The translations under genes were made by a program, and so were the position numbers. A stretch of 64,000 nt of DNA from the IMG/VR virus record IMGVR_UViG_3300026183_000827; one strand, 5' to 3'. The notes beneath the pieces are model-generated. The model did no database searches, was not told the origin of the DNA, and was given only the letters and a program-made list of their open reading frames with translations. Origin of the DNA: a virus. Shown here piece by piece: positions 26,080 through 63,961 of this stretch (its first letter is position 1; each line of letters starts with the position of its first letter).

Positions 26080-26080
26080 T

Positions 26081-26779: not shown

Positions 26780-27531
26780 TGGAAGATCGTTATACACTTA
26801 ATTATGATCCTAACAATCTCTTATTAGTCTTAGGTGACAGCTGGTCATGGGGAGATAGTTTAAAAAATCGAATTCAAGACACCTATGCATCTATACTAGC
26901 AAAAAAACTAGATTTTAGTCTTATTAATAATAGTGTATGTGGTTGTAGTAATTTCGATATGCTAGATCGATTGAGTCAAGAATTAAAAAATATTGATGCA
27001 AAAAAATATAATAAAATTATTATTATTCTTGGATTAACTGAAACAGGCAGAGAGTGGCACAGATATCAAATTCTAACAAACGACATTGATAATAAGTTTA
27101 AAATGATTGAACAAAGCACAGTTGATCGTATAGATTTTTTATCAAAATTACTTCCAAATAATGTTCAACTTATTGTTAGTAGAAATTTTACAAATTTTTA
27201 TCCAGAAACAACTTTACATAATAATAAATTTTTTACTCGTAAAATTTGGTGTGAAATAATATCACAAAAATGTAAAGTTGAATGGCCTATAACGTATGGT
27301 CCTATTAGTGGCTGTGTTTTTGAACCTATGCTTTCTCGTTATAAAAATGATGCTAGTTTTAAATCTTGGTTTTCTGAAAAAATAGACCTTGCACAAAAAA
27401 CTTGGGATTGGTTAGACAACAGTCCTTATAATTATAAAAAGTTCACTAAACATCCAACCGAAGAAGGTCATGTTTTATGGGCAGAGTATTTGTTGCTTTT
27501 GATAAAGGAATTTAAGTTAAATGAAAAGTAA
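26779..27531 (+). CDS. SGNH/GDSL hydrolase-like protein
   Basis: LGDSWSWG block I, GCSN, and C-terminal KHPTEEGH. Confidence 0.7.
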   Translation: MEDRYTLNYDPNNLLLVLGDSWSWGDSLKNRIQDTYASILAKKLDFSLINNSVCGCSNFDMLDRLSQELKNIDAKKYNKIIIILGLTETGREWHRYQILTNDIDNKFKMIEQSTVDRIDFLSKLLPNNVQLIVSRNFTNFYPETTLHNNKFFTRKIWCEIISQKCKVEWPITYGPISGCVFEPMLSRYKNDASFKSWFSEKIDLAQKTWDWLDNSPYNYKKFTKHPTEEGHVLWAEYLLLLIKEFKLNEK

Positions 27532-27958
27532 GTTTATAAATGCATATATGGACGTTGCTGAACGTTTTGCACAACTAAGTTCAGCAAAGCGTTTACAAGT
27601 AGGTGCGATTGTTGTAAAGGATGATCGCATTATCAGTATTGGCTACAATGGTATGCCTAGTGGATGGGATAATTGCTGTGAAGAATGGGATGGTGAGGAT
27701 GAATGGGGGAACACCATTACTAAAAGTAAAAAGGAAGTGCTTCATGCAGAATCAAATACGATTGCTAAACTTGCCCGATCTTCTGAAAGTGGTGAAGGGG
27801 CAACTATTTTTATTACACACGCACCTTGCATAGATTGTGCTAAACTAATCTATCAAAGCGGAATAGCCACTGTGTACTACAAAAATGAATATCGTAGTAC
27901 ACAGGGCATAGATTTTCTTAAAAAGTCAGGTGTTGTTATTCATCACCATAAACTTTAA
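27521..27958 (+). CDS. dCMP deaminase
   Basis: GYNG, HAE and PCIDC zinc motifs. Confidence 0.93.
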   Translation: MKSKFINAYMDVAERFAQLSSAKRLQVGAIVVKDDRIISIGYNGMPSGWDNCCEEWDGEDEWGNTITKSKKEVLHAESNTIAKLARSSESGEGATIFITHAPCIDCAKLIYQSGIATVYYKNEYRSTQGIDFLKKSGVVIHHHKL

Positions 27959-48382: not shown

Positions 48383-51055
48383 ATGCCATACGTTGATGCG
48401 ATGTTCGATCGTGATCAAGATATTATACGTGTCGTAGAACGCCGTGACGGCAAAAGACACTATACAGAATATCCTGCAAAATATACATTTTACTATGAGG
48501 ATCCAAGAGGCAAGTACAAAAGTGTGTACGGCGATCCTCTTACACGCATTGTCTGTAAGAACACAAAAGACTTTCGCAAAGAAGTTGCTATAAACAAAAG
48601 CAAGAAATTGTTCGAAAGCGACATCAATCCAATCTTTCAATGTTTAAGTGAACACTATCTCAATCAAGATGCTCCTAAACTAAACATTGCGTTCTTTGAT
48701 ATCGAGACGGACTTTGATCCAGAGCGTGGGTTTGCTGATCCAGCAGACCCATTTATGCCCATTACATCTATAAGTGTATACTTACAGTGGATGGAAACAA
48801 TGGTATGTCTTGCTGTTCCACCCAAAACACTCACAATGGAGCAGGCAAAAGTAGAACTTGAAGGCATTGAAAATGTAATGCTGTTTGAGAAAGAAGGTGA
48901 CATGATTGACACGTTCTTAACACTGATTGAGGATGCTGATATTTTATCAGGTTGGAACAGTGAAGGTTATGATATCCCATATACTGTAAACAGAACAAGC
49001 CGTGTGTTATCTAAAGATGACACAAGACGTTTTTGTTTGTGGGGACAGTTGCCTAAGAAGCGTGAATATGAAAAATACGGAAAGCAAGCAGTTACATTTG
49101 ATCTAGTAGGTCGTGTACACTTAGACTCATTAGAACTATATCGCAAGTACACATATGAAGAACGTCACTCATATCGCTTGGATGCAATTGGTGAAATTGA
49201 AGTAGGCGAAAACAAAGTGCCATATGAAGGCACACTGGATCAGTTGTACAACAATGACTTCCGCAAGTTTATTGAATATAACATTCAGGATACTGCACTG
49301 CTAGACAAACTGGACAAGAAGCTACGCTTTATTGATCTAAGCAATAGCATTGCACACGAGAACACTGTGTTACTACAGACTACAATGGGTGCTGTTGCTG
49401 TTACAGAGCAAGGTATTATCAACGAAGCACACAACAGAGATTTGCGAGTACCTAACCGTCCAAAGCGTGATGACACAGAAAGCACACAAGCAGCAGGTGC
49501 GTATGTTGCGTTTCCTAAAAAAGGTTTGCACAAGTATATTGGTTCAATGGATTTGAATTCACTGTATCCATCAGTAATTCGTGCATTGAATATGGCTCCG
49601 GAAACTATTATAGGACAGATACGTCCTGAAATTACAGATGCTCGTGTACATGAAGATATGACACTAAAGAAAAAGTCATTTGCAGGTAGTTGGGAAGGAC
49701 GCTTTAATGTTGAAGAATACGACATAGTTATGGAGAAGCGCAAAGATGTTGCACTTACTGTTGATTGGGAAGATGGACGTTCAGACGTACTAAGTGGTGC
49801 AGAAATTTATCAACTTATTTTTGACAGTCAAATGCCATGGATGTTGAGTGCAAATGGCACAATCTTTACAACAGAGTTTGAAGGTGTTATTCCAGGTATT
49901 CTAAAGCGTTGGTATGCAGAACGTAAAGAACTACAAAAGAAACTTAAAAAAGCCAAAGACGCAGGTCTTGATGCGGAAATTGAGTATTGGGACAAACGAC
50001 AATTGGTTAAGAAAATTAATCTTAACAGTCTATATGGTGCTATTCTCAATCCTGGTTGTCGTTTCTTTGATAAACGCATTGGCCAGTCTACTACACTAAC
50101 AGGTAGACAAATTGTTAAGCATATGAGTGCAGAAGTTAACAAAGTTATTACAGGCGAATATGATCATGTAGGCAAAAGTGTTATCTATGGCGATACTGAT
50201 TCTGTGTATTTTAGTGCATGGCCTGCTCTCAAAGATGATGTAGAATCAGGCAAACTTGACTTTAATATTGACAAGTGTATTGCACTATATGACCAAGTGT
50301 GTGAACAAGCAAACACAACATTTCCAGACTTTATGGTGCGAGCATTTCACTGTCCAAAAACAAGAAGTGATGTTATTGCCGCAGGTAGAGAAATTGTTGC
50401 ACAAAGTGGACTGTATATTACTAAGAAGCGTTATGCGGCATTGGTAATTGATAATGAAGGATTCCGCACAGACGGTGACGGCAAGCCAGGCAAAGTAAAA
50501 GCAATGGGCTTGGATCTGCGTAGATCAGATACTCCTGTGTTTATGCAGAAGTTCCTGAGTGAATTGCTGCTAATGGTGCTTACTGATGTCCCACAAGAAG
50601 ATGTGCTACAGCGTATCACAGAATTCCGCAAAGAGTTTGAACAGCGTCCGGGATTTGAAAAGGGTTCGCCAAAACGTGCTAATAAAATTGGACACTATCA
50701 ACGTCTTGAAGAAAAGCAAGGTAAAGCAAATATGCCTGGACACGTAAGAGCAAGCATTAACTGGAACACACTCAAGCGTATGAACGGTGACAAGTATTCG
50801 CAAGAGATTGTAGATGGTATGAAAGTTATCGTTTGTAAACTCAAACCAAATCCACTAGGTTATACTAGTGTAGCATATCCAACAGATGAACTACGTTTGC
50901 CAGAGTGGTTCAAAGAACTTCCGTTTGATGATGCAGCAATGGCAGAAACAATTATTGATAACAAACTAGACAACTTGATCGGTGTGCTAAATTATCCTCT
51001 AGAAGATACAAAGCAACACAACACCTTCTCAAGTTTATTTGATTTTGGAGACTAG
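48383..51055 (+). CDS. Family B DNA polymerase (T4 gp43-like)
   Basis: FDIETD exonuclease motif, DLNSLYPS, KINLNSLYG, YGDTDS, KKRYA, and a C-terminal clamp-binding-like SLFDF. Confidence 0.97.
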   Translation: MPYVDAMFDRDQDIIRVVERRDGKRHYTEYPAKYTFYYEDPRGKYKSVYGDPLTRIVCKNTKDFRKEVAINKSKKLFESDINPIFQCLSEHYLNQDAPKLNIAFFDIETDFDPERGFADPADPFMPITSISVYLQWMETMVCLAVPPKTLTMEQAKVELEGIENVMLFEKEGDMIDTFLTLIEDADILSGWNSEGYDIPYTVNRTSRVLSKDDTRRFCLWGQLPKKREYEKYGKQAVTFDLVGRVHLDSLELYRKYTYEERHSYRLDAIGEIEVGENKVPYEGTLDQLYNNDFRKFIEYNIQDTALLDKLDKKLRFIDLSNSIAHENTVLLQTTMGAVAVTEQGIINEAHNRDLRVPNRPKRDDTESTQAAGAYVAFPKKGLHKYIGSMDLNSLYPSVIRALNMAPETIIGQIRPEITDARVHEDMTLKKKSFAGSWEGRFNVEEYDIVMEKRKDVALTVDWEDGRSDVLSGAEIYQLIFDSQMPWMLSANGTIFTTEFEGVIPGILKRWYAERKELQKKLKKAKDAGLDAEIEYWDKRQLVKKINLNSLYGAILNPGCRFFDKRIGQSTTLTGRQIVKHMSAEVNKVITGEYDHVGKSVIYGDTDSVYFSAWPALKDDVESGKLDFNIDKCIALYDQVCEQANTTFPDFMVRAFHCPKTRSDVIAAGREIVAQSGLYITKKRYAALVIDNEGFRTDGDGKPGKVKAMGLDLRRSDTPVFMQKFLSELLLMVLTDVPQEDVLQRITEFRKEFEQRPGFEKGSPKRANKIGHYQRLEEKQGKANMPGHVRASINWNTLKRMNGDKYSQEIVDGMKVIVCKLKPNPLGYTSVAYPTDELRLPEWFKELPFDDAAMAETIIDNKLDNLIGVLNYPLEDTKQHNTFSSLFDFGD

Positions 51056-52021: not shown

Positions 52022-52125
52022 AAATAAAAGTAGAAGTAGAATTTGATACAGAAAAAACACAAGACGAAGAACTAATGCAAAAGCTATTAGAACTTCTTGA
52101 AGAATTAAGGGAGCAGTTAGAATGA
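52018..52125 (+). CDS. Small hypothetical protein (35 aa), not in ORF track
   Basis: ATGA-coupled at both ends; MKIKVEVEFDTE... Confidence 0.6.
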   Translation: MKIKVEVEFDTEKTQDEELMQKLLELLEELREQLE

Positions 52126-52568
52126 AAGTAGGATTTACTTGTTCAACTTTTGATTTGCTACACGCAGGTCATGTACAAATGTTACGAGAAGCAAAAGATC
52201 AGTGTGATTATTTAATATGCGGATTACAAGTAGATCCAAACTTAGATAGATCTGAGAAGAACTCTCCTATACAAACTATTGTTGAACGTTACACACAACT
52301 CAAAGCAGTTGGTTACGTAGATGAAATTATTCCGTATGGTACTGAAAGAGACCTAGAAGATATCTTGACAATGTATCATATTGATGTTAGAATATTAGGA
52401 GAAGAGTATAGAGACAAAACGTTTACCGGTAGAGCTATATGTGCTAAACGTGGAATTGAACTATATTTTAATAAACGTGATCATAGATTTTCATCTAGCG
52501 ATCTAAGAGCAAGAGTTGCAGAAAGACATACACATGGGAATGAATTCAGTCGGCAGAAAACTAAGTGA
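52122..52568 (+). CDS. tagD: Glycerol-3-phosphate cytidylyltransferase-like
   Basis: STFDLLHAGH and RDHRFSSSDLR motifs. Confidence 0.88.
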   Translation: MKVGFTCSTFDLLHAGHVQMLREAKDQCDYLICGLQVDPNLDRSEKNSPIQTIVERYTQLKAVGYVDEIIPYGTERDLEDILTMYHIDVRILGEEYRDKTFTGRAICAKRGIELYFNKRDHRFSSSDLRARVAERHTHGNEFSRQKTK

Positions 52569-52850: not shown

Positions 52851-53014
52851 TGTGGACACTTTGGATTGTTAGCACTATTATCGGAAGTGCAGAACCTAAA
52901 TACACTCGCTATGATACATATGAAACTAAAATGGCTTGCCAAATAGAGTGGCATCTTGTTACTATGGATTTTACTGAAGACGAAGTAGCGTATTGTGAAG
53001 GACCAGATGAATAA
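52850..53014 (+). CDS. Small hypothetical protein (54 aa), not in ORF track
   Basis: TGATG-coupled; MWTLWIVS...C...C. Confidence 0.55.
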   Translation: MWTLWIVSTIIGSAEPKYTRYDTYETKMACQIEWHLVTMDFTEDEVAYCEGPDE

Positions 53015-53714
53015 ATTTATTTTTGATGTAGACGGAACACTAACTCCTAGTAGAGGAAAGATAGATAAAGAATTTGCAGCATGGTTTGAGCATTTTGCAA
53101 CACATAATGCTTGCTATTTTGTAACCGGATCTGATAAGATAAAAACAGTTGAGCAAATAGGTTTACCGATTTATAATCTCGCTATTAGAGTTTATAATTG
53201 CAACGGTAATGATGTTTGGGAACAGAACGTAAATGTTCGTACAAATGAATGGATACTACCTGAAGATGCACATGCATATTTGAGTGACGAACTTTGTGCA
53301 AGTGCATTTCCTTTGCGTACAGGATTACACTTTGAACATCGGCCAGGTATGTGTAATTTTAGTGTTGTAGGACGCAATGCTACACAAAAACAACGTGCAG
53401 AGTATGTAACCTGGGATAAAGATTTTGACGAACGTGTTTATATTGCTCATAACTTTAATCAACTGTTTCCAGAGCTTGAAGCAAAAGTAGGTGGCGAAAC
53501 AGGAATTGATATTGCACCAAAAGGAGCAGACAAAAGTCAAATTTTAAATGACTTTGATAAAGATGATGTTATTGTGTTCTTTGGCGATGCAATGCACCAA
53601 AACGGTAACGATTATCCATTAGCACAGGCTAATATAAAAGGAGAAAATTATCATGTGCAAGATTGGAAAGACACATGGAGGAAATTAAATGAAAATTTTA
53701 ATAACAGGTCATAA
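53007..53714 (+). CDS. HAD-family phosphomannomutase (eukaryote-type PMM fold)
   Basis: FDVDGTLT, VTGSD, NFSVVGR, GGETGIDI and FFGD...GNDY motifs. Confidence 0.88.
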   Translation: MNKFIFDVDGTLTPSRGKIDKEFAAWFEHFATHNACYFVTGSDKIKTVEQIGLPIYNLAIRVYNCNGNDVWEQNVNVRTNEWILPEDAHAYLSDELCASAFPLRTGLHFEHRPGMCNFSVVGRNATQKQRAEYVTWDKDFDERVYIAHNFNQLFPELEAKVGGETGIDIAPKGADKSQILNDFDKDDVIVFFGDAMHQNGNDYPLAQANIKGENYHVQDWKDTWRKLNENFNNRS

Positions 53715-54414
53715 AGGATTTATAGGCACACAGCTTTGTAAGTTCTTAAAAGACTACGATATTATAGGTCTTGATGTAAAAGAACATGAAGATCAAGATA
53801 TACTAACTTGCGAATTACCTGATGTAGATATGGTTATACACCTTGCTGGTATAGGCGGTGTTAGAGAAAGCATGGACAATCCAAAACGCTATTGGTATAA
53901 TAATGTAGAAGGCACAAAACGTATACTAGAAAGATATAAAAATATTCGTGTATTAGTTGCTGGATCCAGTTCGCAATACGAACCACATCTTAATCCTTAT
54001 GCTGCAAGCAAAAATATAATAGAATACATTCCTCACTCTAATGTTTGTTTTATGCGATTTCATACTGTTTACGGTGATATTCCTAGAGCAAATATGTTTT
54101 TTGACAAACTGTTAAACAATAAGCTTGAATATGTTACTAATCATGAAAGAGATTTTATACACATAGAAGATTTGTGCAATGCTATTGGAATGATTATGAA
54201 CGACAATAGAATACAAGGTCCTATTGATATTGGCACCGGAACTTGTGTAAAAATTTCAAATATAAGACCAGATTTGCCTATTCGCCTAAATACACCGGGG
54301 GAAAGACAAAGGACACAAGCTAATATTATGAAATTGTCAAGTTTAGGTTGGAAACCAAAACACACTGTAAAAGAATTTTTAAAAAATAAAGGTTTCTTGT
54401 ATGAAGAAATTTGA
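53689..54414 (+). CDS. NAD-dependent sugar epimerase/dehydratase
   Basis: ITGHKGFIG, YAASK and RDFIHIED motifs. Confidence 0.9.
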   Translation: MKILITGHKGFIGTQLCKFLKDYDIIGLDVKEHEDQDILTCELPDVDMVIHLAGIGGVRESMDNPKRYWYNNVEGTKRILERYKNIRVLVAGSSSQYEPHLNPYAASKNIIEYIPHSNVCFMRFHTVYGDIPRANMFFDKLLNNKLEYVTNHERDFIHIEDLCNAIGMIMNDNRIQGPIDIGTGTCVKISNIRPDLPIRLNTPGERQRTQANIMKLSSLGWKPKHTVKEFLKNKGFLYEEI

Positions 54415-54955
54415 TGCAGTTTTGTTAGTTGATTGTTGGACTCCGAATTTTTGGAAAGACGATGAAAGAGCAAGAAAACAAAAAAAGTTTCACAATAGTC
54501 TTTTATCATTTTTAAGAACACAAGAATTTGATCAAGTGTTATTTGCAACAAAAGGCTTACCTGAAACCCAAACTGATCCTCGTTTAAAATATAAATTACA
54601 TAGCAAAACAAAATCTAATAGCGAATTACATATTGAAGATATTGTTTCGTATTACGATTTGTACAAAAATTTGCAAGATAAAAGTAATATACTTTTAGGT
54701 GGCGCAGCATGGCAAATGTGTGTTCACGGAAATCATATAGGATTGTATGAATTAATGGATGAAAAAAATCTTACAATTCTTTCACATCCTTCTATGGTAG
54801 ATAGTTTTATTGACGACGAAGAGCCTGTTACTAAACAAGACTTTGAAAATGATTGGATGATTACATGGTTCGAACGTGGCGATGGTTTTTATCATGCCAG
54901 TCATAGAAAGCATATAACAAAGTCTTTTAGAAAAATTGATGTTGACAAAACATAA
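54401..54955 (+). CDS. Hypothetical protein (weakly isochorismatase-like)
   Basis: VLLVDCW...LLGGAAWQMCV. Confidence 0.55.
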   Translation: MKKFDAVLLVDCWTPNFWKDDERARKQKKFHNSLLSFLRTQEFDQVLFATKGLPETQTDPRLKYKLHSKTKSNSELHIEDIVSYYDLYKNLQDKSNILLGGAAWQMCVHGNHIGLYELMDEKNLTILSHPSMVDSFIDDEEPVTKQDFENDWMITWFERGDGFYHASHRKHITKSFRKIDVDKT

Positions 54956-54970
54956 AAAATGTAATATAAT
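54942..54970 (+). promoter_or_regulatory. Sigma70 consensus promoter
   Basis: TTGACA-17 nt-TATAAT. Confidence 0.85.
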
Positions 54971-54995: not shown

Positions 54996-55724
54996 ATGAA
55001 AGATATTTTACAAGACGTAGTAGCACATACTCATGCACTAGGATTTCTTAGTCTAGTTAAAGTTAGCAACGACGAAGGCACAGCAATTGATTCAATGGCA
55101 GAAGACCGTAGTGTTATTTTGTCAGCAGAAACACATTCACCCGTAGCAGAGTTTGTAGGCACATTTGGTATGCCTAACTTAGATAAACTTGCATTGCATT
55201 TAAAAAATCCAGAGTACAAAGACAATGCAAAAATTGATGTAGTACAAGCAGAACGCAACGGCGAAACTATTCCAACACACATTCACTTTGAAAATGCAGC
55301 AGGCGATTTTGAAAATGATTACCGCTTTATGAATAAAGCAATCATTGAAGAAAAACTAAAAACTGTTAAGTTCAAAGGCGCAAGTTGGAATGTAACACTA
55401 CAACCTAGTGTAGCAAGCATTGCACGTATGAAGCTCATGAGTGCAGCACATAGTGAAGAGCCTACATTCAATGTTAAAACTGTAGACGGTAACTTAGTAT
55501 TTTCGTTTGGTGATGCTAGTACACACGCAGGTGAGTTTGTATTCCAACACGGTGTAGAAGGTGCGCTACAACACATCTGGAGTTGGCCAGTAGCGCAGGT
55601 ACAAAGTATTTTGAGCTTAGACGGCGATTTGACCATGAGCATTTCAGATCAAGGTGCTATGAAGATTAGCGTAAACTCAGGTATGGCAACATACGATTAC
55701 ATCCTACCAGCACAGAGTAAGTAA
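54996..55724 (+). CDS. Probable sliding clamp (gp45/PCNA-like)
   Basis: 242 aa with a two-domain alpha/beta pattern and C-terminal YxYILPA; clamp loader and polB are in the same window. Confidence 0.65.
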   Translation: MKDILQDVVAHTHALGFLSLVKVSNDEGTAIDSMAEDRSVILSAETHSPVAEFVGTFGMPNLDKLALHLKNPEYKDNAKIDVVQAERNGETIPTHIHFENAAGDFENDYRFMNKAIIEEKLKTVKFKGASWNVTLQPSVASIARMKLMSAAHSEEPTFNVKTVDGNLVFSFGDASTHAGEFVFQHGVEGALQHIWSWPVAQVQSILSLDGDLTMSISDQGAMKISVNSGMATYDYILPAQSK

Positions 55725-55727
55725 AAT

Positions 55728-57275
55728 ATGCGCAAAGACTTAACTGCATCACAAAATGACTACGCTAGATTTCTCCCAGCACTAAGTGGCTTCTATGCCA
55801 CTTACGTGGGCAAACAGCGTTATAACGAATATGTAGATAAGTCACGTATCCCTTCAAACTTTACACACGGTGTAGAGAGTTTAAACTATCTTAACAAGCA
55901 AGAAGGTCAATTCCAGTACCAGTGGACACTTTACTCTGCAGGACACGCTGAACTAGACATTAACAAACATGCACCTAAAGAAGATATGGTGCGTAATAGA
56001 GATAGACAAAACTCTTGGATACTAGGCGACTCAGGTGGTTTCCAGATTGGTAAAGGCGTGTGGGAAGGTGACTGGAAGAATCCTAATTGTCCTAAAGCAC
56101 AAAAGAAAAGAGAACAAGTTCTCCGTTGGATGGATGCTTATATGGACTATGGTATGATCCTTGATATTCCTGCCTGGGTATGTCGCTCGCCTGCGGGTAG
56201 AGAAGCAACTGGTATTACTAGTTATATGGAAGCTGTTGAAGGCACATACATTAACAATGACTACTGGATTGCTAATCGTACAGGTGCTTGTAAGTTCTTA
56301 AATGTTCTACAGGGTGAGAATCACGCTGAAGCAGATGACTGGTATGATCGTATGAAAAAGTACTGTGATCCTAAGCAGTATCCAGACAATCACTTTAATG
56401 GTTGGGCAATGGGTGGACAGAATATGTGTGATGTACATCTAGTGCTTAAACGTATTGTAACTATGCATTTTGACGGTTTGCTAGAAAAAGGCATTCACGA
56501 TGTAATGCACTTCTTAGGAACATCAAAGCTAGAGTGGGCTTGTTTGCTTACTGACATTCAACGTGCTGTACGGAAAAACTATAATGAAAACTTTACTATT
56601 ACCTTTGACTGTGCTAGTCCTTTCCTCGCAACCGCGAACGGACAGATCTACATTCAAAACGAAACTGAAGACAGAAGCAAATGGACGTATCGTATGGTGC
56701 CGTCAGTTGACGATAAGAAATATGCTACAGACAACCGTATCTTTAGAGACGCTGTTATATCAGATGGGATATTTAAAAACTTTGAAGACTCACCGCTTAC
56801 CGCTGAACTCAAAGTATCAGACGTTTGCACTTATGCTCCAGGAGACTTAAATAAAATAGGTAAAGAAGGAAAGACATCGTGGGATAGTTTTAGTTACGCT
56901 ATCCAAATGGGACATAATGTGTGGAGCCACATAAATGCAGTGCAAGAAGCTAACAGACAATACGACAATGGATGCATTCCGAGAATGCTTGTCCAAGAAC
57001 GTTTTGATAGAATCTTGTTCAAAGATGTTGTGAACGAAATTTTTGCAAAAGACAATAAAGACGCTGCTCTTGCACTAATTGAAGAATATTCTAAGTTTTG
57101 GATGGCTATTCCAGGTACACGAGGTGCAGTAGGTAAGAAAACTGTAAACGCTAGTACACACTTTAATGCGCTTTTTGACGTAGAAGAACCAGAGACAGAA
57201 AATGATCACGAAGATGGTTTATTCACAGAAGCAGAGGAACATAAATTGGAGGAAATGGAGAATGAGCAACTATGA
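55728..57275 (+). CDS. dpdA: TGT-family guanine transglycosylase (DpdA-like, 7-deazaguanine insertion)
   Basis: GDSGGFQ, LDIP, VLQG, GWAMGG, HFLG and TFDCASP motifs; QueD-like and FolE genes nearby. Confidence 0.8.
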   Translation: MRKDLTASQNDYARFLPALSGFYATYVGKQRYNEYVDKSRIPSNFTHGVESLNYLNKQEGQFQYQWTLYSAGHAELDINKHAPKEDMVRNRDRQNSWILGDSGGFQIGKGVWEGDWKNPNCPKAQKKREQVLRWMDAYMDYGMILDIPAWVCRSPAGREATGITSYMEAVEGTYINNDYWIANRTGACKFLNVLQGENHAEADDWYDRMKKYCDPKQYPDNHFNGWAMGGQNMCDVHLVLKRIVTMHFDGLLEKGIHDVMHFLGTSKLEWACLLTDIQRAVRKNYNENFTITFDCASPFLATANGQIYIQNETEDRSKWTYRMVPSVDDKKYATDNRIFRDAVISDGIFKNFEDSPLTAELKVSDVCTYAPGDLNKIGKEGKTSWDSFSYAIQMGHNVWSHINAVQEANRQYDNGCIPRMLVQERFDRILFKDVVNEIFAKDNKDAALALIEEYSKFWMAIPGTRGAVGKKTVNASTHFNALFDVEEPETENDHEDGLFTEAEEHKLEEMENEQL

Positions 57276-57471
57276 AACAGAAGAAGATAAACTTCGAGCT
57301 CATTACGAGGAATTAGAGAGAAAACATAGAGAACTTGACAACGAGCTAATCGAACGTTATAATAATCAAACAGTAACAGACGAAGTTCGTAGAATGAAAA
57401 CTATGAAACTCTATTTAAAAGACGAAATGCATCGTATTAACGCTTACTTGATACAAAAAGGCTTAGAATGA
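57262..57471 (+). CDS. Small coiled-coil protein (DUF465-like)
   Basis: HRELDNEL...KLYLKDEM. Confidence 0.65.
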   Translation: MSNYETEEDKLRAHYEELERKHRELDNELIERYNNQTVTDEVRRMKTMKLYLKDEMHRINAYLIQKGLE

Positions 57472-57998
57472 AAAGAGATTACGAAAACGGTGAACACGAC
57501 GATGTTGTGTTCTTTACAGGCATTGAAGTAGAACGTACACCTGCTTACGGCAAGAAAACACTATTTGTAACTGGCGTTCAAGATATTGAAACAGTGTTTG
57601 AACATTTTGCAACACAAGAATGTGAGCATATTTTCTTTGGTGCTAATCATAGTTTTAATCCTGGCGTTAATTTTCCAAAAGATGCAGATGCATGGGAAGA
57701 ATGGGAAAACATGATTGAATACTTTTTAGAAAAGGGTGTACCTTGTACACTAGATGTTCCGTTCAGTCACGCAGAAGCATTACTAGAAACTACAATGATT
57801 GAAACAGATTTGTTTATTCCACAAATCCGCATTCCACTTCCTTACATCAAGCAATATAATTATAACACTATGATTAAAATCGATGACAGAGATTTTAAAG
57901 CAACTAATCCAGGTGTTTGGTGTCATAGACTACACAATCTAATGGACGATAAAAAATTCACTGATTGGAGTGAATACGAACTTGACAAACCTCTATAA
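57468..57998 (+). CDS. Hypothetical protein in the deazaguanine locus
   Basis: ATGA-coupled 176-aa ORF (GIEVE...HIFFGANHS). Confidence 0.75.
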   Translation: MKRDYENGEHDDVVFFTGIEVERTPAYGKKTLFVTGVQDIETVFEHFATQECEHIFFGANHSFNPGVNFPKDADAWEEWENMIEYFLEKGVPCTLDVPFSHAEALLETTMIETDLFIPQIRIPLPYIKQYNYNTMIKIDDRDFKATNPGVWCHRLHNLMDDKKFTDWSEYELDKPL

Positions 57999-58010
57999 AG
58001 AAAGTATAGT
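57982..58010 (+). promoter_or_regulatory. Sigma70-type promoter
   Basis: TTGACA-17 nt-TATAGT, with the ATG 6 nt downstream. Confidence 0.7.
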
Positions 58011-58016
58011 AATAAT

Positions 58017-58478
58017 ATGCAAGAACGATATTATGAATATATGAAACGTAGAATGAAAGAAGAAGATAAAAAAATGTCAATGCAAAATGCAGAACGTAGT
58101 ATTTGGGTAACCTTTTCAAAAGAAGGGGTACATATGTACCCAGGTGCTGACACAGATCCTAAACTAGCAACTGGCGATTGGGATGATGTATCATTCCTTG
58201 GTATTCCACATCGTCATATTTTCCACTTTCGTGTTCGTATTGAAGTATTTCATAACGATCGCGACATTGAATTCATTCAGTTTAAACGCTGGATGGAACG
58301 GTTGTATGCAGAAGTAGATAGTTCTACAGCAGTACTACAACTTAACCACAAGTCATGTGAGATGATTGCAGATGACTTGTATCAAGAAATTTCTAACAAA
58401 TATCCAGGCCGGTTTGTAGAAATTAGTGTTGCTGAAGACAACGAAAACGGCTGTTCAATTTTTTACCCAAGGTCATAA
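58017..58478 (+). CDS. QueD/PTPS-like T-fold protein
   Basis: H...PHRHIFHFRV, RDIEF, SCE and V-x-E-D motifs. Confidence 0.7.
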   Translation: MQERYYEYMKRRMKEEDKKMSMQNAERSIWVTFSKEGVHMYPGADTDPKLATGDWDDVSFLGIPHRHIFHFRVRIEVFHNDRDIEFIQFKRWMERLYAEVDSSTAVLQLNHKSCEMIADDLYQEISNKYPGRFVEISVAEDNENGCSIFYPRS

Positions 58479-58500
58479 CCATCATAAGAGGATTATTAAA

Positions 58501-58707
58501 ATGGCTAATAACTTTCCACCGGTACAAAAGATTTTTGACGACTTGGACAAGTTTCGCGACTATTGTCGCTTTGAAGGCAAGCCCTTCAATGAAGCAGATT
58601 TATACAACGATAAATCATGGGTTTGGGGTGCATACAAAAAGCACCAAGGTTGGTTGAGAGCTAAAGCTCGAAATAATAATAGGAATCAAGTACAAAGGAG
58701 AAGCTAA
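58501..58707 (+). CDS. Hypothetical protein
   Basis: GAGGA RBS before ATG 58501. Confidence 0.7.
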   Translation: MANNFPPVQKIFDDLDKFRDYCRFEGKPFNEADLYNDKSWVWGAYKKHQGWLRAKARNNNRNQVQRRS

Positions 58708-59792
58708 TGACAATTTATATCGTAGACATTGAAGCAGTAGACACACGTTACACAAAGCAGTGGAAGGACTTTCTTCCTACGCAACTGCAACATGCTACGA
58801 ATAATGAAGTTGTTGTAATTAGTGGAGGGGAAACGCCTCAGGCAACTACGCCTGGGGCTTTTCTTAACTTTGGTGGAACCAATGTGTACAAGAGCAAACA
58901 GCTCGAACAAATTGGTGAAATGTTTTGCAAAGGAGAAATTAAAGATGGAGATTATTTCCTATATACGGATGCGTGGAACCCAACTGTTATCCAGTTGCGC
59001 TACATGGCTGAACTCCTTGGGGTCGACATTAGAATTGGTGGTCTTTGGCATGCTGGTTCTTATGATCCACATGATTTCCTAGGTAGGCTCATAGGCGATA
59101 AGCCTTGGGTCAGACATGCTGAAAAAAGCATGTACTACACATACGATAACAACTTCTTTGCAACAGATTTTCATATCGATATGTTTGTTGATACTATTTT
59201 AGATAAAAATAATAATGATCACTGGACAACTGAAGAAGTAATAGATTTTTACGAAACAACTCAACGTGTAGGTTGGCCTATGGAGTATCTAAAAGAAAGC
59301 CTTGTTACTTACAGCGGTATGGACAAACGCAATCTTATACTCTTTCCGCATCGCATTGCTCCAGAAAAACAAGTTGATATCTTCCGTGATCTATCAGAGC
59401 AACTTCCTGAATATGAATTTGTAGTGTGCCAAGAACGTGAACTTACTAAGAACGAATATCACAACTTGCTAGGCGAAGCTAAAATGGTGTTCTCAGCTAA
59501 CTTGCAGGAAACACTTGGTATTAGTTGGTATGAAGGCGCACTTGTAAATGCTATTCCAATGGTTCCTGATAGACTGAGTTATACAGAAATGGCACTGCCT
59601 GAGTTTAAGTATCCTAGTGTGTGGACTGAAGACTTTGCTAGTTATCGCAAACATAGAGGAGAAGTTGTTGCTAAGATTCGTGACTATATGGAAAACTATG
59701 ACGATTACCTTGTAAGTTTAGACAAGCAACGAACTAAACTAAACAAAGATTTCTTTAGCGGAGCAGCATTGTATGACGCAATCAAAGGATGA
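58707..59792 (+). CDS. GT-B glycosyltransferase
   Basis: FPHRIAPEKQ, ETLGISWYEG (E-x7-E) and PDRLSYTE motifs. Confidence 0.85.
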   Translation: MTIYIVDIEAVDTRYTKQWKDFLPTQLQHATNNEVVVISGGETPQATTPGAFLNFGGTNVYKSKQLEQIGEMFCKGEIKDGDYFLYTDAWNPTVIQLRYMAELLGVDIRIGGLWHAGSYDPHDFLGRLIGDKPWVRHAEKSMYYTYDNNFFATDFHIDMFVDTILDKNNNDHWTTEEVIDFYETTQRVGWPMEYLKESLVTYSGMDKRNLILFPHRIAPEKQVDIFRDLSEQLPEYEFVVCQERELTKNEYHNLLGEAKMVFSANLQETLGISWYEGALVNAIPMVPDRLSYTEMALPEFKYPSVWTEDFASYRKHRGEVVAKIRDYMENYDDYLVSLDKQRTKLNKDFFSGAALYDAIKG

Positions 59793-60186
59793 TACATTTA
59801 CTATAGATATTAGTGATTTAAAGTTAGATGATATCTTAGATACTTCTGATAATATTACACTCGATCTAGGTGATATTAACATGGGTACTACTACAACGTA
59901 TTGGGCAGGCGATAGTGTAACTGATATAACTATGTCTACTGGCGATGGTACATTTACACTAACAAGCAATGATACCATTACAATAGACGGGCATAATACT
60001 GAGTTTAACACAGATTGGATTTATAATTATAACCAAATTGACCCAGATAAAGTTGAACGTATGTGTAAACAGTATCCAGCACTAGAAAAAGTTTGGCGCA
60101 ACTTTAAAAGCGTATACGATATGGTTAAACAAGATTACGAAGGTAAGAAAAAAGCAGGAGAAATAGACGATGACCTTCCGTTCTAA
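59773..60186 (+). CDS. Hypothetical protein (Thr/Asp-rich N-terminus)
   Basis: GGAG RBS; C-terminal YPALEKVW motif. Confidence 0.65.
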   Translation: MTQSKDDTFTIDISDLKLDDILDTSDNITLDLGDINMGTTTTYWAGDSVTDITMSTGDGTFTLTSNDTITIDGHNTEFNTDWIYNYNQIDPDKVERMCKQYPALEKVWRNFKSVYDMVKQDYEGKKKAGEIDDDLPF

Positions 60187-60607
60187 ATTTTTAAACTGGC
60201 TAGAGAAATTAGGTCGTAAAAGAGTTATAATGGATAGACACAATAACGAGCCATACCTAACTAGGTATTACTTGTTTTTAAAAGAAAGGAAATGGTTTCC
60301 TTTTAACATTTTTTTACACAATTTCCACAAAGGAGACTTAGATGATTTACATGATCACCCTTGGCCTTTTATCACTTTTATCATTAAAGGTGGTTATTGG
60401 GAACATACACCAAATGGCCGTTTTTGGCGCGGCGCAGGCACGTTACGGATTGCCAGCTGTCATAGCCTTCACCGTGTTGAGCTTGAACCTGGCGTTGATG
60501 TATGGACTTTATTCATCCCAGGTCCTAAGCTAAGAGATTGGGGATTCTTACGTAAAGGCGAATGGATTCAACACGAGCAATATATGAGAGAAAAATATGA
60601 ACGTTAA
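60170..60607 (+). CDS. Cupin-fold protein
   Basis: LHDHPW...GGYWE...HRV metal motif. Confidence 0.75.
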   Translation: MTFRSKFLNWLEKLGRKRVIMDRHNNEPYLTRYYLFLKERKWFPFNIFLHNFHKGDLDDLHDHPWPFITFIIKGGYWEHTPNGRFWRGAGTLRIASCHSLHRVELEPGVDVWTLFIPGPKLRDWGFLRKGEWIQHEQYMREKYER

Positions 60608-61163
60608 AAAGCACTATTATTCGTGGCAGGATGTAGAACGTGCTTGCCTAAACATTGCATTACAAATGTATAACGACAACTGGAAGCCTGACTATATTGT
60701 AGGTATTACTCGAGGCGGCAACGTACCTGCTACTATTTTATCTAATATGTTAGGTGTACGTTGCGAAGCACTAAAGGTTAGTTTGCGTGATAACTACGAC
60801 GGTGAAAGCAGTGAATCTAACTGCTGGATGGCAGAAGATGCGTTTGGCTATATTCCTATAGAAGAACAAGAAACTTGTCGCTGGGATAATAAACTACGCA
60901 AGAACATTCTTATTGTAGACGATATCAACGATACTGGTGCTACATTCAACTGGATTAAACAGGACTGGATGAGCGGATGTTTGCCCAATGAAGAAGATGC
61001 GTGGAACAGTGTTTGGGGTGGACAAAATCCTAATGTTCGATTTGCTGTTATTACAGAAAATCTTTCTAGCAACTTTGATGGTGTACGTTATTACGTACAC
61101 GAAGTTAATAAAGCAGAAGAAGATGTTTGGCTTGTATATCCTTGGGAGAATGTAGGGAAATGA
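60597..61163 (+). CDS. Type I phosphoribosyltransferase (purine PRT-like)
   Basis: VGITRGG, ILIVDDINDTGAT and WLVYPWE motifs. Confidence 0.9.
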   Translation: MNVKKHYYSWQDVERACLNIALQMYNDNWKPDYIVGITRGGNVPATILSNMLGVRCEALKVSLRDNYDGESSESNCWMAEDAFGYIPIEEQETCRWDNKLRKNILIVDDINDTGATFNWIKQDWMSGCLPNEEDAWNSVWGGQNPNVRFAVITENLSSNFDGVRYYVHEVNKAEEDVWLVYPWENVGK

Positions 61164-61363
61164 ACGAAAAAGAACGACAAGATAAATTAAATTATCTCAA
61201 AGGTTTAGAGAGTAGTATACAAGCAAGACTTGAAGAGCTAAAAGAAGCACAAGAAAACAATGCAAAAGGTAATCATATAAACAGTATTCAATCTGGAATT
61301 TTTGCAAGACGTAGACAGATTGCGAAACTAAAAAGAGAATTAGGCATTGAAAGAAAGAACTAA
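61160..61363 (+). CDS. Hypothetical coiled-coil protein
   Basis: ATGA-coupled. Confidence 0.6.
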   Translation: MNEKERQDKLNYLKGLESSIQARLEELKEAQENNAKGNHINSIQSGIFARRRQIAKLKRELGIERKN

Positions 61364-61374
61364 GGAGTCGTAAA

Positions 61375-62100
61375 ATGGCAACAACAGAAGAAAAGGTAGA
61401 ACTAGTAGAAACAATCAAAGGTCCACGATACTACCGCATTCACATTTCAGGATACGGTGGCGAAGCGGCTTATATGAGCATTACAAAAGAAGCACACGAC
61501 TTTTGGCAACCTATTTGCGAAGAACACGGTGACAGTGACTTTGTTAACTATCTTGTATCAGACGAGGATGAAGAAGAATACGAAAACATCGATAGTGTCC
61601 CGCCTGAAGCAGACTTTCTAACTAGTTATGGCGCCGACGATTACAAGTCATCTTGGTACGAAGCACCATCTGAATATGAGCATCAATGGGGTGTTGAAAT
61701 TGGTAGTGCATATATGGACATTGACGAAGTAGACAGCGATGACTATAGTGCAAACGTTGTTCGTGAAGTAATGAATCGTGAAGGTGTACAAGACTTGTGT
61801 GAACGAATTGGTGAAGAAACAGATTGGAATGTAGAAATGTGGGATTCACAAGAGTGTTATGCTGGTGAAGATGTAGAGTATATTGCACAGATGTATTCAA
61901 GTGAAAAAGGGTCGTTCTTTGATGGCGTAATTGAAACCGTAGGAGAGTTTGATCCTAAGAAACTTGAGTTTCATTGTAGCGAATATGACAACGGCGAAGA
62001 ATGTATTACATCAATTGTATATGACGGTGTTGAAATTGATAATAATGGTGGCGATACTAACGGAAAAGGCTACTACGCAAGTGTATGGAAAAATAATTAA
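61375..62100 (+). CDS. Highly acidic hypothetical protein
   Basis: AAGGAG RBS; D/E-rich. Confidence 0.75.
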   Translation: MATTEEKVELVETIKGPRYYRIHISGYGGEAAYMSITKEAHDFWQPICEEHGDSDFVNYLVSDEDEEEYENIDSVPPEADFLTSYGADDYKSSWYEAPSEYEHQWGVEIGSAYMDIDEVDSDDYSANVVREVMNREGVQDLCERIGEETDWNVEMWDSQECYAGEDVEYIAQMYSSEKGSFFDGVIETVGEFDPKKLEFHCSEYDNGEECITSIVYDGVEIDNNGGDTNGKGYYASVWKNN

Positions 62101-62525
62101 TGATTGATACTTTAGAAAAAGCTCAACAAGAAGGTCGTGCACCTTGGACTGATGTAGAATATAACACAAAGGATTTTGTTGTATACAAAGACAAGTTTCC
62201 AGTTACAGAAGGTCATACATTAGTTGTTCCAAAACAAAACACTGTAGATGACATCATGCGTTGTTTTAAATTTGCTGTAGAAATGGGCAATCAAAATGTT
62301 CAAAGTTTAGCAAATAATATTACAGGTTATAATGTAGGAATTAATGCAGGAGAAAGTGCGGGACAAACTTGCATGTATCCCCATGTACATTTAATATTCC
62401 GTAGACACGGAGATTGCGAAAATCCAAAAGGAGGTATACGTCATTGTGTTCCCGGTAAAGGAGATTATACTAGACTTTCTTCTGGATTTACAGAATATGA
62501 TATAAGCACTCTTGAAAGGACGTAA
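62100..62525 (+). CDS. HIT family nucleotide hydrolase
   Basis: FPVTEGHTLVVP and AGQTCMYPHVHLI motifs. Confidence 0.9.
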   Translation: MIDTLEKAQQEGRAPWTDVEYNTKDFVVYKDKFPVTEGHTLVVPKQNTVDDIMRCFKFAVEMGNQNVQSLANNITGYNVGINAGESAGQTCMYPHVHLIFRRHGDCENPKGGIRHCVPGKGDYTRLSSGFTEYDISTLERT

Positions 62526-63209
62526 ATGAATACTGTACCAATTCCAGATAAAGTTATAGAATTTAATCCTTTAAAAATGGATAACGAAGTTCTAGTAGAT
62601 GATTATCTATGGCTATTTAAATTTGACGATATTGATAATAACAAATTGTTACAGACCTGTTTTGATGTAGGAAATTATATAGATGATAATTTTCCTCCTG
62701 TTCCTGATACAGGAGTTTATGGATGTCCAACATCCTATTACCACGGACATTATAATCTTTTTAGTTTTCCCAGTACTGAATTATATAAGCTATACAATAA
62801 TATGGCTAAAAAATTATATTCAGTGATGAGAGAAGATGATTATTACATACGGTGTTGGGTTAATTTATTTGAACCTGGTCAAAATATAGATTGGCACAAA
62901 CATTGGGGTAAAGATAGTAGAGCTTATCACGGATTTTATTGTGTTAATGTAGAAGGCGAAAATCATTCTTATACAGACTATCTTATAAAAGGGTACTGGG
63001 ATAATCGATTTAGAGTATTAAGTAAGAATGGATATTGTGTATTTGGAAAATCTGAAGATGATTTGCATAGAGCTTCGCCCTGGGAAAATGATGGTTATAG
63101 AGTTACTATAGCATTTGACGTAGGGCCAATATCAGTTTTACAAACGCAAAATGGGTATATGACTGACAAGCCTCATGATTTAATACCTTTAATTAAAAAA
63201 AATGTTTGA
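62526..63209 (+). CDS. 2OG-Fe(II) oxygenase-like protein
   Basis: WVN...WHKH...LHRA...RVTIAFD. Confidence 0.65.
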   Translation: MNTVPIPDKVIEFNPLKMDNEVLVDDYLWLFKFDDIDNNKLLQTCFDVGNYIDDNFPPVPDTGVYGCPTSYYHGHYNLFSFPSTELYKLYNNMAKKLYSVMREDDYYIRCWVNLFEPGQNIDWHKHWGKDSRAYHGFYCVNVEGENHSYTDYLIKGYWDNRFRVLSKNGYCVFGKSEDDLHRASPWENDGYRVTIAFDVGPISVLQTQNGYMTDKPHDLIPLIKKNV

Positions 63210-63234
63210 CAAAAACCTAAATAAAGTATATAAT
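63206..63234 (+). promoter_or_regulatory. Sigma70 consensus promoter
   Basis: TTGACA-17 nt-TATAAT. Confidence 0.85.
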
Positions 63235-63277
63235 ATAAACAATAAGACATCCTCGTCTTTAACTCGGAGAATATAAA

Positions 63278-63961
63278 TTGAGCAAAGCAGAACAAATTAA
63301 AGCAAAACTAGAAGATGCTGGTATCCGTTACTGGGCAGGCGATAATATTTCAGAAGTCCTACAAAACGGTGACAAAGAAGCACTTATTGATGATGCTACA
63401 CTAGCATTTGAAGGTGTACTTGATGCACTACTAATTGATCGTCATAACGATCCTAACTCTAAAGGCACAGCAAAACGTCTTGCTAAAATGTACTTTAATG
63501 AGATTATGGCAGGACGTTACGATCCTGCACCAGATGCAACAGCATTTCCAAACGACTCAGATGAACGTTACGAAGGTATGCTTGTAGTGCGTTCTGAACT
63601 TAAAAGTATGTGTTCACATCATCACCAGCCAGTAGCAGGTGTTGCATATATTGGTATTATTGCCGCAGACAAATTAATTGGCTTATCTAAATACACACGT
63701 ATTGCACAGTGGTGTGCTAGACGTGGTACACTGCAAGAAGAACTTGCAAACGACATCGCACGTGAAATCCAAAAAGCAACTGGTGCAGAACACTTAGGTG
63801 TTTACATTCAAGCAACACACGGTTGCTGTGAGAATCGCGGTATTATGGCACATAGTTCATTGACACAAACAACTGTACTTAAAGGTGCGTTTAAAGATGA
63901 TCCCGGTACAAAGAAAGAGTTCTTTGACAACATTAAACTACAACAGGAGTTCAGCTGCTAA
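63278..63961 (+). CDS. folE: GTP cyclohydrolase I
   Basis: SMCSHH, GLSK, LQEEL and HGCCENRG motifs; TTG start with GGAG RBS. Confidence 0.95.
   Translation: MSKAEQIKAKLEDAGIRYWAGDNISEVLQNGDKEALIDDATLAFEGVLDALLIDRHNDPNSKGTAKRLAKMYFNEIMAGRYDPAPDATAFPNDSDERYEGMLVVRSELKSMCSHHHQPVAGVAYIGIIAADKLIGLSKYTRIAQWCARRGTLQEELANDIAREIQKATGAEHLGVYIQATHGCCENRGIMAHSSLTQTTVLKGAFKDDPGTKKEFFDNIKLQQEFSC

Follow-up and report, generated by a model that had tools for sequence, protein, structure and literature searches.

Do some phages place a sugar on a modified guanine of their DNA? The question is raised by a gene cluster at positions 55728-63961 of a 64,000-nucleotide (nt) stretch of viral DNA, here called the window, which is the reverse strand of positions 27365-91364 in the 126-kb virus record IMGVR_UViG_3300026183_000827 of IMG/VR. 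The record is rated 34% complete, and therefore its length implies a jumbo phage. The GC content is about 35%, and almost every gene lies on one strand. An earlier reading of the letters alone, hereafter the sequence-only reading, had described the cluster as a 7-deazaguanine DNA-modification locus with an embedded glycosyltransferase (GT), which might add a sugar to the deazaguanine and give an undescribed modification. All the open reading frames (ORFs) that it named are present where it had placed them, on the plus strand, which is the strand of every window feature given below.

The answer comes in parts of unequal certainty. Judged by its gene content, the locus is very probably a 7-deazaguanine DNA-modification module: it encodes a DpdA-like protein with the fold of a tRNA-guanine transglycosylase (TGT) as well as FolE, QueE follows just downstream, and QueD is found elsewhere on the contig. 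The GT is tied to this pathway by its genomic linkage, while a sugar on the final DNA base is in our judgement an even bet. The reading that we prefer is that such a sugar is added. In its widest form, many aquatic jumbo phages, PA5oct-like Pseudomonas phages, Acidovorax phage ACP17, Phosso and some alphaproteobacterial loci would replace guanine by a glycosylated 7-deazaguanine; DpdL would free position 7, a GT4 enzyme would add a phage-tailored sugar, possibly C-glycosidic, and a new clamp-tethered DpdA subfamily would install the base while the DNA is replicated. To this widest form we give a probability of roughly 0.4.

The proposed sequence of events is as follows. In a PA5oct-like jumbo phage FolE, QueD and QueE would convert GTP to 7-carboxy-7-deazaguanine (CDG) without QueC. 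The DpdL-type protein would process CDG further, the published proposal being decarboxylation to 7-deazaguanine, and the DpdA-like transglycosylase would put the deazaguanine in the place of guanine in phage DNA, perhaps riding on the replication clamp. The GT4 enzyme, the obligate partner of DpdL in this clade, would transfer a sugar onto the deazaguanine from a nucleoside-diphosphate sugar (NDP-sugar) made by the neighbouring mutase, nucleotidylyltransferase and short-chain dehydrogenase/reductase (SDR). This could happen on the free base before insertion or afterwards in DNA, and the product would be a glycosylated 7-deazaguanine. A Gpt-like phosphoribosyltransferase (PRTase) would return the excised guanine through GMP to GTP, the pathway's own precursor. 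What we infer are the chemical steps, the sugar acceptor, the DNA target and the clamp tethering. What the analysis shows, as described below, are protein folds, catalytic residues and a linkage of genes that holds over hundreds of loci.

Relatives of the locus were studied in three sets: gene counts and gene order come from 80 close loci, linkage was counted with hidden Markov models (HMMs) in a census of 127 non-redundant viral loci, and the DpdA-like family was aligned using 64 homologues of 29-92% identity drawn from 160 viral loci. More than 589 viral contigs in IMG/VR carry the module. A megablast search of the locus against GenBank phages gave no match. By protein comparison the gene order is syntenic with Pseudomonas jumbo phage PA5oct (DNA polymerase, clamp-like protein, 515-residue protein, GT, T-fold protein, QueE, RNase H, AAA ATPase), and Vibrio phage 2.275.O and Sinorhizobium phage Phosso are syntenic as well. 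The order in the close loci is DNA polymerase, (nucleotidylyltransferase, phosphomannomutase, SDR), clamp-like protein, DpdA-like protein, u176, DpdL, u93, GT, (u137, cupin), PRTase, (HIT), FolE, QueE, u127 and RNase H.

The first element of the module is the long DpdA-like guanine transglycosylase of the TGT superfamily, encoded at 55728-57275. Its 515-residue product has no match in Pfam, NCBIfam, PHROG or PADLOC, no PADLOC Dpd model fits it, and sequence and profile searches of the family against the PDB sequences found nothing significant. Its AlphaFold model has a pLDDT of 90.5 and a pTM of 0.90, and when this model is compared with the PDB using Foldseek the top 50 matches are all tRNA-guanine transglycosylases, with E-values from 6e-7. 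The matches in BFVD include a protein of Vibrio phage 2.275.O, a "tRNA guanine transglycosylase" of Achromobacter phage Motura, R9TGF0 of Vibrio phage nt-1, several phage queuine tRNA-ribosyltransferases and M4SLA5 of Cellulophaga phage phiST.

The sequence features agree with such a fold. GDSGGFQ, LDIP, NVLQG, HFLGTS and FDCASPF are invariant among the homologues of four distant phages, and D101 (in GDSGGFQ) and D294 (in FDCASPF) are invariant in all 64 aligned family members. Further, hhalign puts FDCAS onto MFDCV of E. coli TGT. We take the catalytic aspartates of the Z. mobilis enzyme to be D102 in DSGG and the nucleophile D280 in FDC; both TGT catalytic aspartates are therefore conserved. 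In profile comparison the family reaches the 424-residue protein of ACP17 with an hhalign probability of 91.8%, DpdA3 of phiST with 54.5% and E. coli TGT with 20%. The ACP17 protein is encoded between FolE/u176 and GT/DpdL/QueE, and the homologue in Vibrio phage 2.275.O stands beside QueF, a YhhQ-like transporter, QueC, FolE and QueE. Here and in more than 100 loci the gene shares a block with FolE, QueE and DpdL. We conclude that the 515-residue protein is a DpdA-like enzyme of a long subfamily missed by the curated HMM libraries. In Vibrio phage 2.275.O the DpdA-like gene is followed by gene 469 (L005:13723-14835), whose 370-residue product matches Amidoligase_2 weakly and may make a further preQ1 derivative.

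The sequence-only reading had placed this gene directly after a sliding clamp. The TGT/DpdA-like label and the adjacency are borne out, and the clamp label is moderately supported. The gene at 54996-55724 encodes a clamp-like protein of 242 residues, a probable PCNA/gp45-type sliding clamp. The order polymerase, clamp-like, DpdA-like is kept in 79 of the 80 close loci, in PA5oct and in Vibrio phage 2.275.O, and in Phosso the homologue, which is annotated as a sliding clamp, comes after the polymerase and before DpdL and GT. The ESM Atlas gave a PCNA/gp45 lead for the protein; an hhalign profile comparison of the family with a gp45-like clamp was negative.

A possible physical counterpart of this gene order is found in the protein itself. 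The disordered C-terminal tail of the DpdA-like family (window 57140-57275) carries an FxxLF(D/E) motif, here FNALFD; the strict pattern is present in 37 of the 64 aligned members, and several others have looser variants. The C-terminus of the DNA polymerase (window 50930-51055) reads FSSLFDFGD, and the two together look like a shared clamp-binding peptide. Because the tail motif is conserved, the polymerase ends in a similar peptide and the gene is fixed behind the clamp-like gene, the sequences suggest that the DpdA-like enzyme may be tethered to the replication clamp.

Since the gene stands in the replication block, and in view of what is published on phage DpdA, we predict that the enzyme exchanges guanine in DNA rather than in tRNA. 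A different route is that the PRTase turns the deazaguanine into a nucleotide, as ToyH does for toyocamycin, that the HIT enzyme and others process it and that the polymerase incorporates it, while the TGT-like protein acts on tRNA or otherwise. A 6-oxopurine-type PRTase and a HIT enzyme do lie inside the cluster, and the PRTase is widespread in the clade. However, no gene of the block encodes a kinase, a reductase or an enzyme that depletes dGTP, the PRTase is missing from ACP17 and from the bacterial cassettes described below, and the DpdA-like gene, which has the polymerase-like tail motif, keeps a fixed place with the genes of the polymerase and the clamp. Moreover, every phage with known 7-deazaguanines in its DNA encodes a DpdA-family protein (PMC10516641). 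We regard incorporation before replication as very unlikely.

Which deazaguanine should be expected depends on the next enzyme. The gene at 58017-58478 encodes a T-fold protein of 153 residues, which matches phrog_17812 (4e-31) and has no match in Pfam or NCBIfam. The sequence-only reading called it QueD-like. It is a QueD paralogue, but its LGIPHRHIF fits the signature LxxxHRHxF, which marks DpdL, a proposed CDG decarboxylase, as opposed to CxxxHGH in QueD (Cui, Hutinet et al., NAR 2023, PMC10516641). The QueD-like label thus gives way to a DpdL type, and the expected base becomes 7-deazaguanine. The protein is 31% identical to phiST gp040/CGPG_00067 (tblastn, E-value 6e-6, 82% of the protein) and 51-62% identical to its homologues in ACP17, PA5oct and Phosso.

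The enzymes that make CDG are found inside the window, after its end and before its start. GTP cyclohydrolase I (FolE) is encoded at 63278-63961 (PF01227, 1e-38), as had been read. QueE and QueC, which the sequence-only reading had reported as not visible, are indeed both missing from the 64-kb window. The downstream inspection that it recommended finds queE at once, as the next gene after folE, 107 nt past the window end (L002:19005-19898, minus strand); the product, in which the radical-SAM motif CNFRC is present, fits several QueE models, TIGR04322 and TIGR03963 among them, with E-values of about 1e-12 that fall short of the cut-offs. A true QueD/PTPS is encoded about 4 kb before the window start (L007:1495-2013, minus strand; PF01242, 1e-13); it reads CHLLHGY in place of the usual CxxxHGH, with a tyrosine for the second zinc-binding histidine.

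QueC is present only as a divergent PP-loop relative. This protein of 215 residues, the sole QueC relative on the contig, is encoded about 21 kb past the window end on the opposite strand, among five radical-SAM genes. It scores 25.9 bits with Pfam (cut-off 22) and 20.8 with the NCBIfam QueC equivalog (cut-off 150). A complete 364-kb relative with terminal repeats also has a QueC relative only of this divergent kind. The radical-SAM/QueC-like operon lies at L003:215-7486 (about 19.5-27 kb past the window end), and its QueC-like protein has the motif SGGADS ... CGNCWWCHER.

The GT is encoded at 58707-59792. As a single sequence the 361-residue protein matches no family of Pfam (including Glycos_transf_1) or NCBIfam, and PHROG and PADLOC give nothing useful; a whole-library search places it in a family of 1,157 clusters at 50% identity. 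Its AlphaFold model, built from 114 diverse sequences, has two Rossmann-like domains and a pLDDT of 96.1. The fold neighbours found by Foldseek and VIA-align are BshA, MshA, sucrose-phosphate synthase, glycogen synthase, PimB', LmbT and PglA, with a Foldseek E-value of 1e-10, and the VIA Z-scores to sucrose-phosphate synthase, BshA and MshA are 24-26, with a root-mean-square deviation of about 3 Å over 300-317 residues. The family profile also reaches GT chains in the PDB weakly (8xsg, 2.6e-5). At least 90% of the 114 sequences keep the residues R216, K221, E268 and E276; we take these residues to correspond to PimA R196, K202, E274 and E282, that is, to the diphosphate-binding pair and the EX7E motif. 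The proposal of a GT-B glycosyltransferase is hereby upheld, and on the ground of its predicted fold we class the protein as GT4-like (retaining-type) and assign it to no curated family.

The strongest argument that this enzyme belongs to the deazaguanine genes is that it follows DpdL. In the census 102 of the 127 loci have DpdL, and the GT is present in all 97 DpdL loci that could be evaluated (97/97), with a median gap of 236 nt. Where BLAST saw no GT, its position is taken by a 392-residue ORF that belongs to the GT family at 21% identity (hhalign 99.6%). Of the loci in which DpdL is missing, three have sequence enough for a judgement, and these lack the GT too; one of them has QueC instead; the QueC-type relatives (locus L092 and Vibrio phage 2.275.O) lack both DpdL and GT.

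The same association is seen far from the close loci. The GT adjoins DpdL in eleven PA5oct-like records, in Phosso and in ACP17, and lies within about 3 kb of DpdL in Xanthomonas phages BUDD and X1 and in Burkholderia phage BCSR5. One GT of only 27% identity still belongs to a series DpdL-GT-x-DpdA-like, which has a gp44-type clamp loader next to it. Further, species-representative genomes of Alphaproteobacteria (Ochrobactrum, Pelagibacterium, Devosia, Aurantimonas, Methylobacterium, Magnetospirillum, Shimia and Sulfitobacter) have the GT beside the DpdA-like gene, often with DpdL between. These cassettes usually have no FolE or QueE within 7 kb. They encode a very hydrophobic protein of 165-212 residues with a weak likeness to the YhhQ/VUT-like transporter of the Vibrio phage, which by sequence may be a YhhQ/VUT-type precursor transporter. 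The cassettes could be prophages or a host Dpd-like island, and they (L179-L206) also encode unlabelled proteins of about 530 and 585 residues.

The neighbourhood of dpdA, the supposed queD and the GT, whose conservation the sequence-only reading had proposed to check, is thus conserved in distant phages and in bacterial genomes. Since the linkage spans very large evolutionary distances and different DpdA types, the GT is probably a functional part of the deazaguanine pathway.

A sugar donor for the GT could come from genes upstream of the clamp-like gene. A sugar-phosphate nucleotidylyltransferase (RfaE domain II/TagD-like) at 52122-52568, a candidate for NDP-sugar synthesis, matches PF01467 (2e-13), and TIGR02199 (3e-18) and TIGR01518 (1e-16) both below their cut-offs, and is present in 40 of the 80 close loci. 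A phosphomannomutase-like HAD-IIB enzyme is encoded at 52995-53714 (PF03332, 2e-22; TIGR01484, 9e-13; 27/80), and at 53689-54414 there is a short extended-SDR NDP-sugar epimerase/dehydratase (PF01370, 6e-25). In more distant loci the SDR directly follows the GT and precedes the PRTase ("GT EPI PRT"), and in the PA5oct block gene 0320 is an SDR and 0321 a PRTase. Between them the three enzymes could plausibly turn a sugar phosphate into a tailored NDP-sugar, as far as their family assignments tell.

The PRTase itself, of xanthine/guanine type, is encoded at 60597-61163 (PF00156, 3e-12; NF006613, a xanthine PRT model, 2e-12, below cut-off). It is found in 48 of the 80 close loci, in the QueC-type locus L092 and in PA5oct, and from its family it probably salvages the guanine released by transglycosylation.

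Phage enzymes of GT-B fold that act in the cytoplasm and are encoded among replication genes are classically DNA glucosyltransferases, so the GT might merely sit near the deazaguanine genes and glycosylate a hydroxymethylated pyrimidine as in T-even phages. Like the alpha- and beta-glucosyltransferases of T4, it is a cytoplasmic GT-B enzyme of a lytic phage among replication and modification genes, and it would add a second layer of decoration to a modified base. Unlike in T4, its fold neighbours are of the retaining GT4 type and its acceptor would be a deazapurine. T4 AGT and BGT are not among its listed structural neighbours, which does not exclude them. The only thymidylate-synthase homologue (PF00303) is a true ThyA (362.8 bits, cut-off 327) near DHFR and dCMP deaminase, and the complete 364-kb relative also has one PF00303 gene, which makes a hydroxymethyl-pyrimidine improbable as the acceptor. 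Neither the 126-kb record (34% of the genome) nor the one complete relative showed a pathway to such bases, and the GT goes with DpdL and DpdA rather than with pyrimidine genes. Taken together, we find this acceptor hardly credible. The dTMP-synthesis set of DHFR, thymidylate synthase and dCMP deaminase at window 24728-27958 is canonical and adjoins an RFC-like clamp-loader gene at 23466-24380.

Another known enzyme with which the GT may be compared is QTMAN/GTDC1, which mannosylates queuosine in animal tRNA. It too is a GT-B enzyme, and its acceptor is a 7-deazaguanine within a nucleic acid, as is proposed here. However, queuosine has the hydroxyls of a cyclopentenediol and 7-deazaguanine has none. 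The likeness shown is that of the common GT-B fold. QTMAN_N (PF12038) gave no match at E-values up to 10 across the 126-kb record, nor in an hmmscan of the GT protein. The motif FPHRxxPEK presumably resembles one in GTDC1.

Several points weigh against a sugar on the final base. The most basic one is chemical: 7-deazaguanine has no hydroxyl or amino group at C7, and C-glycosylation or attachment at another place would be needed. We know of no precedent among GT4 enzymes for either. Possible ways round the missing heteroatom are C-glycosylation at the electron-rich pyrrole carbon, another position of the base, or a DpdL chemistry other than decarboxylation. The divergent QueC-family protein is conserved among relatives, so that a chemistry of the preQ0 type or of the 7-amido-7-deazaguanine (ADG) type is possible. 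The decarboxylation of CDG by DpdL is itself a proposal and unproven in the paper that makes it (PMC10516641). The GT is acidic (isoelectric point, pI, 4.9), and its closest structural relatives act on small molecules or lipids, not on DNA. Finally, phiST has DpdL and no GT, and its DNA contains 2'-deoxy-7-deazaguanosine (dDG) (PMC10516641). RHph_I1_18, Bakedbeans and Ahp1 also have DpdL with no GT, and since phiST has none and several other DpdL phages have none within 9 kb, DpdL does not need a GT. In Vibrio phage Bakedbeans the DpdL domain is the annotated C-terminal third of the 383-residue gp176 (L167:8215-9366), whose N-terminal 260 residues match nothing in this study; either a fusion or a gene call that runs too long could account for this.

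The dDG of phiST and the small-molecule acceptors of BshA, MshA, sucrose-phosphate synthase and LmbT also speak for a plain base, dDG or else dCDG or dADG, next to a GT that serves another acceptor sharing precursors or regulation with the pathway. This acceptor might be a pterin made from the FolE product by the PTPS-like DpdL, a protein or a component of the host envelope. A biopterin glucoside is made in cyanobacteria by FolE, a PTPS, a reductase and a GT, and the set of FolE, PTPS-like protein, SDR and GT4 enzyme presumably resembles such a pterin-glycoside gene set. However, PF01370 marks the SDR as one of the extended NDP-sugar kind rather than the classical sepiapterin-reductase kind, and the ACP17 cluster has no SDR. 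The bacterial cassettes contain only the DpdA-like gene, sometimes DpdL, and the GT, with no FolE or SDR nearby, and the GT adjoins the DpdA-like gene even where DpdL is undetected. A pterin glycoside would also be of no obvious benefit to lytic phages of Pseudomonas, Acidovorax and Sinorhizobium. We hold a separate acceptor to be unlikely.

Further evidence comes from an attempt to rebuild the pathway, in which DpdL and DpdA of phiST or ACP17 gave no dDG in E. coli and further enzymes were thought perhaps to be needed (PMC10516641). If the GT, perhaps with u176, were a helper that makes or delivers 7-deazaguanine through a transient glycosylated or ester intermediate, the final base would be dDG and the failure with the ACP17 pair would be understandable; in ACP17 the genes of the GT and the u176 homologue lie between those of DpdL and DpdA, and the strict co-occurrence of GT and DpdL in the clade would fit as well. 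Against such a helper, phiST makes dDG without a GT, a sugar later discarded would hardly call for a mutase, nucleotidylyltransferase and epimerase of its own, and we know of no precedent. A sugar that is lost again is in our view distinctly unlikely. Under the preferred reading, with the sugar kept, a module that includes the GT may likewise explain why DpdL and DpdA did not suffice.

The u176 protein, encoded at 57468-57998 between DpdA and DpdL, is acidic and conserved in 75 of the 80 close loci, and its homologue in ACP17 adjoins the DpdA of that phage. For this gene, listed as an unknown in the sequence-only reading, no match was found in Pfam, PDB, NCBIfam, PHROG or PADLOC, and the ESM Atlas gave no usable lead. 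A kinship to "glycosylase" 222 of Phosso or to PA5oct 0320 was considered, and the comparison showed no relation.

How does the locus relate to the systems already described? The DpdL-type system of phiST consists of FolE, QueD, QueE, DpdL and DpdA3 and gives dDG (Cui, Hutinet et al., NAR 2023, PMC10516641). Like it, the locus has FolE, QueD and QueE with no canonical QueC, the LxxxHRHxF motif and a transglycosylase of the TGT superfamily, and protection from restriction is expected. Unlike it, the locus adds the GT4 enzyme, the 176-residue protein, the Gpt-like PRTase and the NDP-sugar genes, and has its DpdA-like gene fixed behind the clamp-like gene. The 515-residue family is not linked to DpdA1-4 or bDpdA by BLAST, Pfam, PHROG or PADLOC, and its hhalign probability to DpdA3 is the 54.5% given above.

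The likeness to ACP17 and PA5oct is closer. In both, a homologous GT (36-45% identity) and DpdL (51-59%) stand side by side with a DpdA-type gene and QueE; ACP17 further shares FolE, QueD and the u176 homologue, and PA5oct the SDR and PRTase. ACP17 differs in its 424-residue DpdA and in having no sugar-nucleotide genes. No report tying the GT of ACP17 or PA5oct to the deazaguanine pathway was found in the searchable literature, nor did a literature search turn up a paper connecting any glycosyltransferase with deazaguanines in DNA. The DNA of PA5oct shows a pattern of restriction-enzyme resistance that points to a modified G; the authors inferred this from the resistance together with the QueE and PTPS genes, without chemistry (PMC12191111).

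Bacterial Dpd systems (DpdA/DpdB/DpdC; dPreQ0, dADG) insert a deazaguanine into DNA by a TGT-family enzyme, as is proposed for the locus, and DpdA-like and GT homologues also occur together on alphaproteobacterial contigs of chromosome size. In contrast to those systems, no PADLOC Dpd model matches and neither DpdB nor DpdC is seen.

The remaining genes of the cluster are less conserved. Between DpdL and GT lies u93 (58426-58707), a small basic conserved ORF with a pI of 10.2 (55 of the 80 close loci), and after the GT comes u137 (59773-60186), a variable acidic ORF with no family match (30/80). They are followed by an accessory cupin at 60170-60607 (phrog_4786, 2e-38; 31/80) and, after the PRTase, by u241 (61375-62100; 6/80), a hyper-acidic accessory protein of 241 residues with 60 Asp+Glu and a pI of 4.05. 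In composition it resembles a DNA mimic, and it could therefore be an anti-defence protein. A HIT-family (HinT-like) nucleotide hydrolase/transferase, also accessory, is encoded at 62100-62525 (PF01230, 4e-10; 30/80), and a 2-oxoglutarate-Fe(II) oxygenase-like protein at 62526-63209 (1/80).

For the cupin, the PRTase and the HIT protein the family matches agree with the labels that the sequence-only reading gave, while for the oxygenase there is a match, but a weak one (phrog_81, 2.6e-6). Its suggestion that the cupin or the oxygenase helps to add the sugar does not fit their distribution, as with 31 and 1 of the 80 loci neither is likely to belong to the core.

The sequence-only reading put all these genes under sigma-70 promoters. 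Three sites match the consensus TTGACA-17-TATAAT perfectly (12/12): at 54942-54970 before the clamp-like and DpdA-like genes, at 57335-57363 before the 176-residue gene, DpdL and GT, and at 63206-63234 before folE. However, the total number of promoter-like sites is no higher than in shuffled sequences. The second of these sites falls within a candidate gene at 57202-57471, an 89-residue ORF that matches DUF465 (3e-7) and shares sequence with the last part of the DpdA-like gene. Two estuary RNA libraries contain a 371-nt contig with the exact sequence of 58365-58735, which is a weak hint of transcription, as carry-over of DNA is possible. Near-identical DNA is found in public runs, all of them Illumina contigs, labelled as soil, freshwater, estuary and marine metagenomes.

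Farther away, about 10-13.5 kb past the window end (L002:6440-9824, minus strand), the genes behind an Mtd_N tail-fibre gene encode two fatty-acid desaturases in tandem, a ferritin-like protein, a protein resembling Asp/Asn hydroxylases and an unknown product of 186 residues.

To our knowledge the 7-deazaguanines reported in DNA (dPreQ0, dPreQ1 with its methyl and formyl forms, dG+, dADG, dCDG and dDG) bear at most a small sugar-free group at C7. If the preferred reading is true, the base made by this module would be the first sugar-bearing purine analogue in DNA, and a new class of hypermodification that joins the two best-known anti-restriction strategies of phages, base replacement and glycosylation. 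Independently of the sugar, a DpdA subfamily is now defined that present HMM libraries overlook, and its possible tethering suggests how a complete replacement of guanine could be coupled to the replication clamp. The module occurs in culturable phages, hence the question can be answered directly, and one of these phages, PA5oct, has already been tried in P. aeruginosa infection and biofilm models.

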